Part shown: one piece after another, positions 47,128 to 52,396 of the stretch
How positions within the stretch are numbered: position 1 is the first letter of the stretch
Layout: every line of letters begins with the position of its first letter
NCBI RefSeq assembly: GCF_013315695.1
Contig: NZ_CP054353.1
Reading direction: 5' to 3' (one strand)
Source of the DNA: Escherichia coli
GTDB taxonomy: Bacteria; Pseudomonadota; Gammaproteobacteria; Enterobacterales; Enterobacteriaceae
Length of the DNA: 64,000 nucleotides
Made by a program: the position numbers and the translations under genes
The notes under the pieces: model-generated
The model's input: the letters and a program-made list of their open reading frames with translations, nothing else
Told to the model about the DNA's origin: nothing
Databases searched by the model: none

Positions 47128-47493
47128 TCAAAAGAGGTTATCCTGCGGAGCCAGCACAAAGCCGCCCTGATCGCCATAGGCACTTAACACCGATTTTTGC
47201 ACCGATGACTGACCGACCAGTTTCGCCAGTTCATCCATCCGAATCTGTAATAACTGCTTTACCTTGCTTTCGTTGTCGAGAATCAGGTGCAGCATCGGGC
47301 GGAGCTGCTCCTGCATCGTAGTGGATGGGGCAACCTCTTCAGTCAGGTGTGCGATCTCCTGCACCGCATTCACATACGCCATTTCGCTGGCGATGAGTTC
47401 GTCCCATTGTTCTTCCGTTGCCAGGCGTAACATGAGCTGGCTTTTTTCGACGAGTTGTTGCCAGGCGAAATACAAATGCGGTGCATTGTTCAT
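47128..47493 (-). CDS. fliT: Flagellar export chaperone / anti-FlhDC factor FliT
   Basis: 121 aa matches E. coli FliT; last gene of fliDST. Confidence 0.85.
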
Positions 47494-47903
47494 CAGACTG
47501 GGTCCTGAATCAAAGAAGGGGAGAGTAAAGACTCTTTCCAGGCATCGGCAATATTACGCATTAATGCTTCCACCTCTTCGACTGCGGAGACATCGTTGCG
47601 TAAATTGGCTTGCAGCAAACGCCTGACCATATAGCTATAAAGAGCAATTAAGTTTTGGGTTAATTCGTCTTTGCTCTCTTCATCAAGACTCACCCGCAGT
47701 CCGTTCTCAATGATGTTGATCGCTTTTGACAAAGAGACACCTTTGCCTTGCTGATTGTTGTCCTGCATAAACAGTCGCGCTCTAACCAGTGCGCTCAGCA
47801 CTCCATCAAATAGCATGGTGACCAACTGCTGTTGGCTGGCGCTCATTACGGCGCTTTCGACGCCAATTTGTGCATAGGCTTGGGTGCCTTTTGCCGCGTA
47901 CAT
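47493..47903 (-). CDS. fliS: Flagellin-specific chaperone FliS
   Basis: 136 aa matches E. coli FliS. Confidence 0.85.
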
Positions 47904-47927
47904 GACCTGTCTCCCGATGAATATTGA

Positions 47928-49334
47928 TTACTTGGAATTACTGTTGTTTTCGAACTGCTGCGTTAAGTAGCTGCTGGTGCTGTTTAACGAGGTCATTAAA
48001 ACGTCCAGTTGGGTAAATTGTTCTTTATAGCGCGCGACCTGCGCATCAATGCGATCGCTGGCGGCGTTGTAGTCTTTAGTTAACTTATTCAGGGTCTTAC
48101 TAACGCCATCGGTAGCGGCTTTAATAATGCCCGTTGTCGAAAGCCAACTGGTCAGGTTGCTGCCGATGGTGGTCGTGATGCCGGTTTTTTTACCATCGCC
48201 AACAATCAATGCACCTACGCCGCTGGCATCTTTTTTCAATGCAGCGGTGAGTTTGTCGGCATCCAGTTCCAGTTTGCCATCGCTGGGATCGGTCGTGATA
48301 CCAATCTGCGCCAGCGTTTTATAGTTGGAAGAACTGACGGTATTACTCAGCATCGATTTCAACTGCGTCTGAATCGTTCGCAGCGTGGAGTCGCCGAGTA
48401 GTGCGCCATTGCTAGAATTCTGGCTATCAGCTCCCGCATCTACGGCGGTGTATTTGGTCAGGCTGCTAAAGGTATCTATTAGCGAGTTATAGGCATTCAC
48501 CCAGTCTTTAATCGCCGTTTGCGCTTTGGAGGTGTCCTGAGTGATGGTCAGCGTCTGGTTGCCTGTGGTGACATCGTTCAGGTTCAGGGTGATGTTTTCC
48601 AGCGCGTCGCTGATGGTGTTGCTGCTGTTCTCAATGGCGACGTTATTGACCGTCAGCTGTGCATTCTGGGCGGCGACCGAGACCTCCATGCCGTTGCTGC
48701 TGGCACTGGCGTCATAGCCCATAAAACTTTGTAGCGCATCATCACCGCTAACCGAGAGCGTCATCGCATTGTCAAGGCCGGTGTCATTTGATGTGACTGA
48801 CAGACGATATTCACCGTTACCCACGTTAATGATGCTTGCGCTTACGCCCGCTTTTGCGTTGTTGATGGCATCACGGATCCCGCTTAACGACGAGTTAGCC
48901 GCGCTGATATCAATGGTAATCGGATCTTTGTCGCCGCCTTGTTGAATGGTGAGTTTACTGTCGCTGGTGGCGATCGCCGTTTTCGTATCGTCTCTGGTGG
49001 TGCGCGTTGTCAGGGTTTGCGCCTGCGCCAGATGGGTGACGCTGATGGTGTATTTCCCGGCGATGGCGTTACCCGCGGTGGTGGCACTGAACGCGGTGGT
49101 GCTGCTGGTGGTGCTGGTAGCGGAAAAAAGATCGGCTTTAGACAATGCAGTATTGGCGGTCTGGAAAGTTGTCAGCGCGCTTTTCAGCGTACCGTAGGCG
49201 CTAAGTTTAGCGGTAAACGACGATTGCTGATTTGAAATAGGGGTTAGCGTCGCTTTTTGCGCGGCGGTGAGGCTATCAAGGATTGAACTTAAATCCAGAC
49301 CTGACCCGACTCCCAGCGATGAAATACTTGCCAT
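47928..49334 (-). CDS. fliD: Flagellar filament cap protein FliD
   Basis: 468 aa MASISSLGVGSGLDLSSILDSL.. matches E. coli FliD. Confidence 0.9.
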   Translation of the reverse strand: MASISSLGVGSGLDLSSILDSLTAAQKATLTPISNQQSSFTAKLSAYGTLKSALTTFQTANTALSKADLFSATSTTSSTTAFSATTAGNAIAGKYTISVTHLAQAQTLTTRTTRDDTKTAIATSDSKLTIQQGGDKDPITIDISAANSSLSGIRDAINNAKAGVSASIINVGNGEYRLSVTSNDTGLDNAMTLSVSGDDALQSFMGYDASASSNGMEVSVAAQNAQLTVNNVAIENSSNTISDALENITLNLNDVTTGNQTLTITQDTSKAQTAIKDWVNAYNSLIDTFSSLTKYTAVDAGADSQNSSNGALLGDSTLRTIQTQLKSMLSNTVSSSNYKTLAQIGITTDPSDGKLELDADKLTAALKKDASGVGALIVGDGKKTGITTTIGSNLTSWLSTTGIIKAATDGVSKTLNKLTKDYNAASDRIDAQVARYKEQFTQLDVLMTSLNSTSSYLTQQFENNSNSK

Positions 49335-49377
49335 GCGATTTCCTTTTATCTTTCGACACGTAAAACGAATACCGGGG

Positions 49378-49404
49378 TTATCGGCCTGAATTGCGCAAAG
49401 TTTA
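49378..49404 (-). promoter_or_regulatory. sigma-28 promoter of fliDST
   Basis: Minus strand reads TAAACTTT-N11-GCCGATAA, a perfect match to the sigma-28 consensus. Confidence 0.7.
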
Positions 49405-49496
49405 CGTTTAATTGTTTTTTTTAATAGCGGGAATAAGGGGCAGAGAAAAGAGTATTTCGTCGACTAACAAAAAATGGCTGTTTGTGAAAAAAATTC

Positions 49497-51357: not shown

Positions 51358-51400
51358 TCGCCGTAACCTGATTAACTGAGACTGACGGCAACGCCAAATT

Positions 51401-51500
51401 GCCTGGTGCGCTGTGCTTATCAGGCCTACAAGGTGAATTGCAATTTATTTAATTTGCAGATTTTTGTAGGCCGGATAAGGCGTTACGCCGCATCCGGCAA
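51401..51500. repeat. REP-type palindromic units between fliC and fliA
   Basis: gcctggtgcgctgtgcttatcaggcctac and gtaggccggataaggcgttacgccgcatccggca resemble E. coli REP elements. Confidence 0.5.
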
Positions 51501-51643
51501 CATGAAGCGTAATTTGTCAGCAACGTGCTTCCCCGCCAACGGCGGGGTTTTTTTCTGCCCGCAATTTACCGGTAACCCCCAAATAACCCCTCATTTCACC
51601 CACTAATCGCCCGATTAAAAACCCTGCAGAAACGGATAATCAT

Positions 51644-51651
51644 GCCGATAA
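51644..51651 (+). promoter_or_regulatory. Possible sigma-28 -10 element upstream of fliA
   Basis: GCCGATAA 26 bp upstream of the fliA start; no good -35 at consensus spacing. Confidence 0.3.
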
Positions 51652-51676
51652 CTCATATAACGCAGGGCTGTTTATC

Positions 51677-52396
51677 GTGAATTCACTCTATACCGCTGAA
51701 GGTGTAATGGATAAACACTCGCTGTGGCAGCGTTATGTCCCGCTGGTGCGTCACGAAGCATTGCGCCTGCAGGTTCGACTGCCCGCGAGCGTGGAACTTG
51801 ACGATCTGCTACAGGCGGGCGGCATTGGGTTACTTAATGCCGTCGAACGCTATGACGCCCTACAAGGAACGGCATTTACAACTTACGCAGTGCAGCGTAT
51901 ACGTGGCGCTATGCTGGATGAACTTCGCAGCCGTGACTGGGTGCCGCGCAGCGTGCGACGCAACGCGCGTGAAGTGGCACAGGCAATAGGGCAACTGGAG
52001 CAGGAACTTGGCCGCAACGCCACGGAAACTGAGGTAGCGGAACGTTTAGGGATCGATATTGCCGATTATCGCCAAATGTTGCTCGACACCAATAACAGCC
52101 AGCGCTTCTCCTACGATGAGTGGCGCGAAGAGCACGGCGATAGCATCGAACTGGTTACTGATGATCATCAGCGAGAAAACCCGCTACAACAACTGCTGGA
52201 CAGTAATCTGCGCCAGCGGGTGATGGAAACCATCGAAACGTTGCCGGAGCGCGAAAAACTGGTATTAACCCTCTATTATCAGGAAGAGCTGAATCTCAAA
52301 GAGATTGGCGCGGTGCTGGAGGTCGGGGAATCGCGGGTCAGTCAGTTACACAGCCAGGCTATTAAACGGTTACGCACTAAACTGGGTAAGTTATAA
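51677..52396 (+). CDS. fliA: Flagellar sigma factor FliA (sigma-28)
   Basis: 239 aa ..NSLYTAEGVMDKHSLWQRYVPLVRHEALRLQVRLP.. matches E. coli FliA; start codon is GTG. Confidence 0.9.
   Translation: MNSLYTAEGVMDKHSLWQRYVPLVRHEALRLQVRLPASVELDDLLQAGGIGLLNAVERYDALQGTAFTTYAVQRIRGAMLDELRSRDWVPRSVRRNAREVAQAIGQLEQELGRNATETEVAERLGIDIADYRQMLLDTNNSQRFSYDEWREEHGDSIELVTDDHQRENPLQQLLDSNLRQRVMETIETLPEREKLVLTLYYQEELNLKEIGAVLEVGESRVSQLHSQAIKRLRTKLGKL

Follow-up and report, generated by a model that had tools for sequence, protein, structure and literature searches.

Results

Flagellar Genes at the Locus

The window, the whole 64-kb stretch of DNA analyzed here, belongs to the chromosome of an Escherichia coli clone of B2 type and H7. 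It carries fliDST, fliC and fliAZ, the flagellar region IIIa genes of E. coli (Table 1), in the order amyA-fliTSD / fliC-fliA-fliZ-tcyJ that is also found in UTI89 and MS 21-1. The products of all six genes score above the curated NCBIfam cut-offs: 142.7 bits against 116 for FliT, 195.2 against 53.75 for FliS, 683.2 against 387 for FliD, 840.7 against 619 for FliC (FliC/FljB model), 358.2 against 201 for FliA and 303.3 against 159.3 for FliZ, the gene of which lies just beyond the range covered by the original prediction. The fliDST, fliC (585 aa) and fliAZ genes are all full-length. The fliC gene has no DNA differences from that of the sister genomes AF3 and MSB1_4I, in which the FliC protein has the same accession as in UTI89 (WP_000079688.1). 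The hairpin and T run 3' of fliC are likely its intrinsic terminator.

Table 1. Position of flagellar genes, promoter elements and deletion-associated features in the window.
Feature	Position	Strand	Description
fliR 3' remnant	41668..41753	(-)	Terminal ~29 codons and stop, 87 nt; aligns with the end of UTI89 fliR
IS1	41754-42521	(-)	Complete, 768 bp; IS1A-type transposase with programmed frameshift
Residual yedK downstream sequence	42522..42716	n/a	195 bp; 42522 is the right-hand deletion endpoint
fliT	47128-47493	(-)	FliD chaperone and anti-FlhDC factor; ORF intact
fliS	47493-47903	(-)	Flagellin export chaperone; ORF intact
fliD	47928-49334	(-)	Filament cap, 468 aa; intact in the window
fliDST sigma-28 promoter	49378-49404	(-)	TAAACTTT-N11-GCCGATAA; 1 mismatch to consensus
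fliC sigma-28 promoter	49497-49523	(+)	TAAAGGTT-N11-GACGATAA; 2 mismatches to consensus
fliC	49600-51357	(+)	H7-type flagellin, 585 aa, full-length
Putative intrinsic terminator 3' of fliC	51531..51554	(+)	G+C-rich hairpin then T run; read by eye
Sigma-28 -10 element before fliA	51644..51651	(+)	GCCGATAA; by eye
fliA	51677-52396	(+)	Sigma-28, 239 aa; ORF intact
fliZ	52442-52993	(+)	183 aa; ORF intact

Sigma-28 Promoters

The whole 64 kb was scanned with the consensus TAAAGTTT-N11-GCCGATAA, allowing up to three mismatches. Only two matches were returned, back to back before fliD and fliC, where 0.46 would be expected by chance and two or more were seen in 9 of 100 shuffles. Both are on the coding strand of the gene that they precede, 44 bp from the start codon of fliD and 77 bp from that of fliC, and both are present exactly as quoted in the original prediction. 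The fliD-fliC intergenic region does not differ between the window and MSB1_4I, MS 21-1 or UTI89. Upstream of fliA there was no consensus match at three mismatches or fewer; the good -10 element found there by eye was missed by the scan because its matching -35 is poor, and no claim of a sigma-28 promoter is made for this gene.

Replacement of the Flagellar-Base Genes by IS1

Compared with UTI89, 14,998 bp (locus positions 4693-19690, yedK to rcsA) have been swapped for a single 768-bp IS1. The lost segment held an ompC-like porin gene, ybcM, ybcL, emrE, fliE, fliFGHIJK, fliLMNOPQ and the first ~700 nt of fliR. The apparent loss of the structural operons is thus real: the fliR remnant, annotated by RefSeq as a pseudogene in AF3 (41668-41757), is the sole trace of the fliE-fliR block, and the window does not hold the fliE, fliF-K and fliL-R set that a functional flag-1 system requires. 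The IS1 occupies the deletion junction exactly, with terminal inverted repeats (ends GGTAATGACTCC... and GGTGATGCTGCC...). Its flanks, ...GCAATTAACG on one side and TGAGGTGGT... on the other, carry no target-site duplication (CAATTAACG compared with TGAGGTGGT), and they stand 15 kb apart in the undeleted UTI89 and MS 21-1. An IS1-mediated deletion therefore removed the block of flagellar-base genes.

A search of 5426 complete genomes found the exact junction in just two, AF3 (a blood culture isolate from the UK) and MSB1_4I (a rectal swab isolate from Australia). IS1 has at least 40 matches across the sister genomes, and repeats of this type may cause an assembly to break or to be joined wrongly, so that collapse at a repeated IS1 might in principle mimic a deletion. 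We give this reading a practically negligible probability, since the window shares the junction base for base with two complete genomes that were assembled independently and come from different countries, and a search of AF3 and MSB1_4I for a high-identity copy of the lost segment elsewhere found none. When the MS 21-1 segment was used as query, close relatives were present among the hits at 99.8% identity or more and these two genomes were absent.

It is also conceivable that the strain is still flagellated through functions encoded elsewhere, for example in a Flag-2 locus for lateral flagella or on a plasmid. Flag-2 loci exist in some Enterobacterales (PMC6993521). Plasmid matches to fliE-R are nearly nil (two places in the entire collection), no second or relocated fliE-R was found in the sisters, and flhB is a pseudogene in them. 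Continued flagellation is thus extremely unlikely, and the sister genomes gave no sign of the complete flagellar set elsewhere that the original prediction had named, together with motility, as its refutation.

As for the exact route, which we infer, the IS1 would have transposed replicatively within the molecule and caused an adjacent deletion of the 15 kb next to it, or else two copies of IS1 would have recombined. Close relatives yielded no intermediate in which an IS1 occupies one junction or the other. The three-piece matches of AF14 and OZ546911, considered as a two-IS1 ancestral intermediate, proved to be two ISKpn26 (IS5-like) insertions, one near the porin gene and one in ybcL. Genome 23CRST035 has an unrelated IS1 inside ybcL.

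Identity to UTI89 is 97.85% on the left IS1 flank and 99.98% on the right, as might be seen if the IS1 marked a recombination breakpoint. This was ruled out by MS 21-1, in which the intact block switches from UTI89-like to non-UTI89-like alleles inside fliH-fliI; the breakpoint therefore lies within the segment that was deleted later.

Recency of the Deletion

MS 21-1 keeps the entire yedK-to-rcsA block and has 10 SNPs relative to the window in 21.2 kb. Relatives that diverge by ~0.05% or less (MS 21-1 and AF14) retain the full block; AF14 shares with the window a Mu-like prophage inserted in dgcQ but has not lost fliE-R. Judged from these comparisons, the deletion is recent, and because it is recent, intact leftover genes are the null expectation. 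The fliDST, fliC and fliAZ genes lie beyond the deletion endpoint and would be intact only for want of time to decay. With undeleted relatives this close, the notion that retention of the leftovers requires an explanation is not supported. The presence of fliA without fliE-R was observed in at least 64 complete genomes.

Substitutions and Further Decay

Since the split from motile-type relatives only two amino-acid changes have arisen in 21 kb, one in fliA and one in fliZ. FliA L143R (CTC to CGC, position 52104) is located in sigma region 3 and is limited to AF3, MSB1_4I and the window; position 143 is Leu or Val in solved FliA homologues and constitutes a conserved hydrophobic position. FliZ S174F (position 52962), which is private to the window, affects the C-terminal tail rather than the conserved domain. 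The description of fliA and fliZ as intact thus holds for their open reading frames and has to be qualified for their products. One lineage-derived synonymous change each was found in fliT (P56, position 47326) and fliS (Q8, position 47880).

The sister genomes carry additional lesions. Both AF3 and MSB1_4I have flhB W345*, a pseudogene at a locus outside the window, and MSB1_4I fliD has a 75-bp in-frame deletion that removes 25 codons. C-terminal FlhB truncations in Salmonella have been isolated as fliK suppressors, and a stop at residue 345 of 382 may leave FlhB with export activity. In AF14, fliD has an internal stop and FliC is shortened.

Flagellar and chemotaxis genes make up 41% of the compared sequence and hold 10 of the 14 lineage-derived substitutions (P=0.02), an excess that rests on 14 events. 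Nonsynonymous and synonymous changes in flagellar genes stand at 5 to 5, a split that by itself is no proof of relaxed selection. Two further signals were set aside. Import of the flhB, flhA, flhE, tar and argS region as one recombination tract is excluded by its nine scattered single substitutions in 12.6 kb, where UTI89 differs at 97 further sites. The tap remnant is not lineage-specific decay, as it is also present in UTI89, MS 21-1 and AF14; Tap is known to be missing in B2 strains (PMC12623472).

Discussion

Predicted State of the Remaining Regulon

In the textbook flagellar hierarchy, FlgM is not secreted without an export gate and sigma-28 is inhibited (PMC12623472, PMC5809477). The argument in the original prediction that FliA would be held by FlgM when the export apparatus is missing is therefore sound. 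It had also pointed to the flhDC, flg and flh loci, which we read from the sister genomes AF3 and MSB1_4I rather than from the window strain. In AF3, flgNMA, flgB-L and flhDC, all outside the window, are intact and FlgM is identical to that of UTI89, but both sisters carry the flhB nonsense mutation described above.

The lost fliE, fliFGHIJK, fliLMNOPQ and most of fliR encode the MS ring, the C ring, the export ATPase and the export gate. Class 2 promoters would still be driven by FlhDC, and FliA, FliZ, FliD, FliS, FliT and FlgM would be made. The hook-basal body, however, could not form, FlgM would stay inside the cell, and sigma-28 would be bound and inactive. Because flgM and flhDC are intact in AF3 and no export is expected, sigma-28 would be inhibited and the sigma-28 promoters of fliC and fliDST essentially silent; the silence of fliC is a prediction of this regulatory model. 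By the same reasoning from gene content, the strain would be non-motile and H-negative by typing, and yet it has an H7 gene. Overall, it is very probable that the clone entered an aflagellate state recently, through the IS1 deletion, and that the leftovers are recent, silent remains of region IIIa in a B2-type H7 clone.

Silent Relics or Selected Regulators

The original prediction had left a choice between silent relics and retention for regulatory roles. Selection could have kept the leftovers if FliZ (an antagonist of sigma-S-dependent genes and repressor of flhDC), FliA or both still had regulatory tasks that do not involve swimming. A global regulatory role of FliZ in E. coli is documented (PMC3367168), the class 2 promoter of fliAZ depends on FlhDC so that FliZ would be made even without a basal body (PMC5809477), and all six leftover ORFs are open. 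However, the deletion is too young for intactness to signal selection. Moreover, the sole two amino-acid changes in 21 kb strike the very proteins in question, FliA with a non-conservative replacement at a conserved position and FliZ. The further lesions of the sisters in fliD, flhB and other flagellar genes speak against regulatory retention as well. Such selection is thus quite improbable, and the silent-relic half of the choice is favored. FliA L143R and FliZ S174F, like flhB W345* and the in-frame fliD deletion of the sisters, would then be signs of leftovers under relaxed constraint that are beginning to erode.

A separate question is why the loss became fixed. Loss of flagella may have been adaptive rather than neutral, and repeated independently in the clone, as a means of escape from immunity directed at flagellin, cost saving or resistance to flagellotropic phages. 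The branches that share the dgcQ prophage differ in their lesions (the fliD stop and short FliC of AF14 against the fliE-R deletion, flhB W345* and FliA L143R of the window branch), and the deletion branch, which spans the UK (AF3) and Australia (MSB1_4I), is internationally spread. In addition, flagellar deletions raise the growth rate in the laboratory (PMC7193553). On the other hand, the basis for this is a handful of genomes, an older lesion that went unnoticed in the common ancestor would render the later ones neutral, and function may have gone during carriage or culture of the isolates. We regard adaptive loss as possible but doubtful. It is compatible with silent leftovers, from which it differs solely on why the loss became fixed. 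A more elaborate version, in which the loss was adaptive and convergent across the dgcQ-prophage branches of this B2 clone associated with the bloodstream and the class-2-driven fliAZ operon is kept temporarily because FliZ still tunes sigma-S-dependent and flhDC expression, seems unlikely.

Significance

IS1 deletion is a common and well-known route to non-motility in E. coli, and no new mechanism or system is revealed here. The practical consequence concerns typing. In silico H typing would give H7 for a strain that almost certainly does not make flagella, and therefore serotype, inferences based on TLR5 or flagellin, and assumptions about motility would be wrong for this clone. The case is also a cleanly mapped natural example of an extraintestinal pathogenic lineage that lost a costly organelle through IS1 and continues to cause bloodstream infections. 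Since close relatives preserve the ancestral state, the set could be used to track the rate at which an orphaned regulon decays.

Comparison with Known Systems

IS1-linked flagellar deletions and non-motile strains that retain fliC are both documented already, and in this sense the case is ordinary. Spontaneous IS1-adjacent deletions of flagellar and chemotaxis genes in MG1655 (5.7-16.4 kb) confer a growth advantage and leave the cells non-motile; recombination following replicative IS1 transposition is the proposed mechanism (PMC7193553). As in the window, a single IS1 adjoins the loss. The MG1655 deletions, however, arose in a laboratory stock and took the flhDC-mot-che side (region II), next to the IS1 that precedes flhD, which shuts off the entire regulon at class 1. 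The deletion described here arose in a natural clinical clone and took region IIIb (fliE-R); it spares the master regulator and is expected to halt the cascade at the FlgM checkpoint.

The fliR site is, on the evidence of a second genome, a repeated IS1 target. In C6 (NZ_CP195945.1) an IS1 lies in fliR only 1 bp away from the fliR junction of the window and is oriented as it is there. Unlike the deletion studied here, the C6 element merely inserted, duplicating 8 bp of its target (ATTAACGG), and all other fli genes are kept. The two events are independent, because their IS1 copies differ in sequence.

E. coli B (REL606/BL21) is likewise a lineage, natural or of laboratory origin, rendered non-motile by fli loss. 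It is reported to lack fliY through fliR, including fliA, fliZ, fliC and fliDST, with its other flagellar genes present but poorly expressed (PMC3446290). The genes lost there (fliA, fliZ, fliC and fliDST) are exactly those kept in the window. One BL21-derived assembly matched fliE-R in our searches, at odds with that description.

A functional parallel is offered by Salmonella and E. coli mutants of the hook-basal-body class (class 2), in which the loss of any fliE-R function blocks FlgM export, PfliC-type sigma-28-dependent class 3 promoters are off and FliD remains in the cell bound to FliT (PMC5809477; PMC12623472). Those are defined laboratory mutants with measured expression, whereas the state proposed for the window is read from its sequence. 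Finally, non-motile clinical E. coli are known to keep a typable fliC, as in O157:NM[fliC H7] and O26:NM[fliC H11] (PMC3765202). The present strain similarly keeps a recognizable H-type flagellin gene, with an H7 genotype and a predicted H-negative phenotype. The earlier strains belong to EHEC lineages and their lesions were not defined in that paper, whereas the lesion in the window is mapped to the base pair.

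Retained genes and promoters

The window is part of an Escherichia coli chromosome: the 12-kb stretch around the finding was matched in 5380 of 5426 complete E. coli genomes and, against H7 strains of the UTI89/NU14 type, shows 99.9-100% identity. Genes were assigned with the RefSeq annotation of the near-identical genome AF3 (NZ_OZ547117.1, blood culture, UK), and all six flagellar products (FliT, FliS, FliD, FliC, FliA and FliZ) exceed the cut-offs of curated NCBIfam families. Both sigma-28 promoters that the original prediction had quoted for fliC and fliDST were located in the window, upstream of fliC and fliD. 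They were the sole matches when the 64 kb were scanned for the consensus TAAAGTTT-N11-GCCGATAA with at most three mismatches, where 0.46 matches per window are expected by chance. The fliD-fliC intergenic region has zero differences from that of MSB1_4I, MS 21-1 and UTI89. Upstream of fliA only the -10 element (GCCGATAA, 51644-51651) is good; the -35 element is poor.

Flagellar genes and sigma-28 promoters retained in the window
Feature	Position	Strand	Length or motif	Basis
fliT	47128-47493	-		ORF list and AF3 annotation
fliS	47493-47903	-		ORF list and AF3 annotation
fliD	47928-49334	-		ORF list and AF3 annotation
fliC	49600-51357	+	585 aa	ORF list and AF3 annotation
fliA	51677-52396	+		ORF list and AF3 annotation
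fliZ	52442-52993	+		ORF list and AF3 annotation
Sigma-28 promoter of fliD	49378-49404	-	TAAACTTT-N11-GCCGATAA	
Sigma-28 promoter of fliC	49497-49523	+	TAAAGGTT-N11-GACGATAA	

An IS1-associated deletion of fliE-fliR

The gene order in UTI89 is yedK, an ompC-like porin gene, ybcM, ybcL, emrE, fliE, fliFGHIJK, fliLMNOPQR and rcsA. In the window, a complete 768-bp IS1 (41754-42521) takes the place of 14,998 bp of this locus (UTI89 positions 4693-19690), so that 195 bp survive downstream of yedK and, at the opposite end, the final 87 nt of fliR, adjoining rcsA. The suspected deletion of the downstream structural operons is thus real and mapped to the base by comparison with UTI89. The IS1 termini are normal and a target-site duplication is absent (flanks CAATTAACG and TGAGGTGGT), which is the signature of an IS1-associated deletion and not of a simple insertion. 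No deletion intermediate was found among the relatives, and both intramolecular transposition and recombination between two IS1 copies are candidate routes. Of the 5426 complete genomes, only AF3 and MSB1_4I (rectal swab, Australia) contain the exact junctions in one uninterrupted match each; in both, fliR is already annotated as a pseudogene. With the deleted segment as carried by MS 21-1 for query and a threshold of at least 99.8% identity, MS 21-1, Trh52, AF14 and many ST95-like genomes were matched; AF3 and MSB1_4I were not among the matches listed, and therefore carry no relocated copy of such identity.

In the river isolate C6, an independent IS1 of different sequence lies in fliR, 1 bp from the window junction and in the same orientation; it is flanked by an 8-bp duplication (ATTAACGG), and every other fli gene is intact. 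IS1 has therefore targeted this site repeatedly. The same appears to hold more widely for the 3' end of fliR (window 41754; locus L010, 9121-9889), as IS1 lies within a few tens of bp in PEC240, 14EC007 and ET479. PEC240 has apparently lost fliE-fliR too. Elsewhere in AF3, an IS1 whose transposase accession equals that of the fli-junction IS1 interrupts torY (555925-557802; locus L006, 12926-14803), a gene intact in MS 21-1 and AF14, and at least 40 places match IS1 in each of AF3 and MSB1_4I; together these suggest an IS1 expansion specific to the deletion sublineage. The yedK-fliE interval (window 42522-42716; relatives' locus L003, 4498-8797) is variable, resembles a prophage remnant (ompC-like porin gene, ybcM, ybcL, emrE) and attracts insertion sequences, among them two ISKpn26 copies in AF14, and an IS1 in ybcL plus an IS200/IS605-TnpB element in 23CRST035.

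Relatives and order of events

The window is a third member of a deletion sublineage with AF3 and MSB1_4I. Apart from an invertible prophage segment, it differs from them at two positions only, 40796 (rcsA) and 52962 (fliZ). MS 21-1 (colon, USA) has the entire yedK-to-rcsA block and an intact dgcQ; compared with the window it shows 10 SNPs over 21.2 kb right of IS1, and three SNPs and one indel over 3.7 kb left of it. An even nearer relative is AF14 (blood culture, UK): the two 3-kb flanks compared show a single SNP and a single indel each. AF14 carries the same Mu-like prophage at the identical point of dgcQ, yet its fliE-fliR genes are intact. The order was therefore prophage insertion, split of the lineages, and IS1 deletion on the branch of the window. 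At such low divergence, the leftover genes and promoters would by default be expected to be intact.

The prophage spans 37.5 kb (585-38076), is bordered by a 5-bp duplication (ACTGG, 580-584 and 38077-38081) and encodes a transposase, the Mor activator, Gam, and tail sheath and tube proteins. It splits dgcQ (yedQ), whose product is a diguanylate cyclase regulating cellulose synthesis, into 1-584 and 38079-39026, and is present in AF3, MSB1_4I and AF14 and absent from MS 21-1 and UTI89. At its tail-fibre end, beside a serine recombinase gene (37426-37998), a 1.6-kb segment (35755-37362) has the opposite orientation to its counterparts in AF3 and MSB1_4I and resembles the Gin-invertible G segment of Mu, a tail-fibre switch. 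Its boundary repeats, around 37145-37280, hold the sole clustered differences from these two genomes.

The rcsA difference is nonsynonymous and private to the window (T195M, C-terminal region of RcsA); residue 195 is Thr in AF3, MSB1_4I, MS 21-1 and AF14. RcsA is a co-activator of colanic acid synthesis, and with RcsB it represses flhDC.

State of the remaining regulon

Regulon loci beyond the window were examined in the sister genomes. AF3 has flgNMA and flgB-L all annotated as intact, a FlgM protein with the accession of that of UTI89, and flhDC, motAB, cheAW, tar and cheRBYZ. Codon 345 of flhB is changed from TGG to TGA in AF3 and MSB1_4I, and not in MS 21-1, AF14 or UTI89. The remnant of tap is an ancestral trait of B2 strains (PMC12623472).

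When differences were polarised with MS 21-1 and UTI89, five substitutions fell on the branch to the deletion sublineage in the 21 kb right of IS1: synonymous changes in fliT, fliS, uvrC and pgsA, and a single amino-acid replacement, L143R in FliA. Of the 5379 genomes that have fliA, only AF3 and MSB1_4I match this allele at 100% identity. Residue 143 belongs to sigma region 3 (97-167 by Pfam). At the equivalent position both the E. coli K-12 FliA structure and the next-best solved FliA have Leu, and a more distant solved sigma factor has Val. Only the window has FliZ S174F, which lies beyond the conserved domain, in the C-terminal tail. Derived changes in the flh-che stretch of AF3 are Tar Q45K, FlhB W345*, FlhA A257S, FlhE V14L, two in ArgS and three synonymous; recombination import was rejected because they are scattered and not clustered. 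MSB1_4I has a 75-bp in-frame loss from fliD and a private MotA allele. Flagellar or chemotaxis genes account for 41% of the sequence compared and for ten of the 14 derived substitutions (binomial P = 0.02, with small numbers), an excess suggestive of decay of the leftover genes. AF14, on the other branch, has lesions of its own: an internal stop in fliD, a FliC shortened by three residues, and private alleles of FliG, FliM, CheW and FlhA.

Expression and comparison with known cases

The expected expression follows from the established flagellar hierarchy. FlhDC activates class 2 promoters, including those of fliAZ, flgM and fliDST; FlgM holds sigma-28 until the completed hook-basal body exports it, whereupon class 3 promoters such as PfliC fire; and FliD export releases FliT (PMC12623472, PMC5809477). 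With FliE, the MS ring, the C ring, FliHIJ and FliOPQR all missing, there would be no export gate, so that FlgM would be retained in the cell and sigma-28 inhibited. The argument that FliA stays inhibited by FlgM is thus sound, both by this hierarchy (PMC12623472, PMC5809477) and by the deletion of the export-gate genes. Both consensus sigma-28 promoters would be nearly silent, FliA, FliZ, FliD, FliS and FliT would still be produced from class 2 promoters, and the strain is predicted to be non-motile and H-negative while having an H7 genotype. Two options had been raised for the retained genes, silent relics or retention for regulatory roles of FliZ and FliA. A residual regulatory effect of FliZ is possible, as it is a known global regulator (PMC3367168); no sequence sign of its preservation for such a role was found in the window and the relatives compared. 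The silent-relic option is supported, and retention for a regulatory role is not. A less probable reading is that flagellar loss was adaptive and convergent within this bloodstream-associated clone.

Flagellar loss with fliC retained is a phenomenon already known. Non-motile clinical isolates with typable fliC are routine (PMC3765202), and in the complete-genome collection 5379 genomes have fliA as against 5315 with any fliE-fliR segment match, therefore at least 64 genomes have kept fliA and lost fliE-fliR. E. coli B is reported to be without fli genes (PMC3446290). The BL21-RIPL-labelled assembly NZ_CP083273.1 matches the whole fliE-fliR segment with a score equal to that of K-12-derived strains, at odds with the published loss of fliY-R in E. 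coli B (PMC3446290); either K-12 DNA is present there in that derivative, or the label or the statement is imprecise. In MG1655, IS1-adjacent flagellar deletions arise spontaneously and repeatedly and increase growth rate (PMC7193553). The sole difference is that those deletions remove the flhDC side, whereas the window has lost region IIIb, and the predicted block accordingly lies at the FlgM checkpoint instead of at the master regulator.
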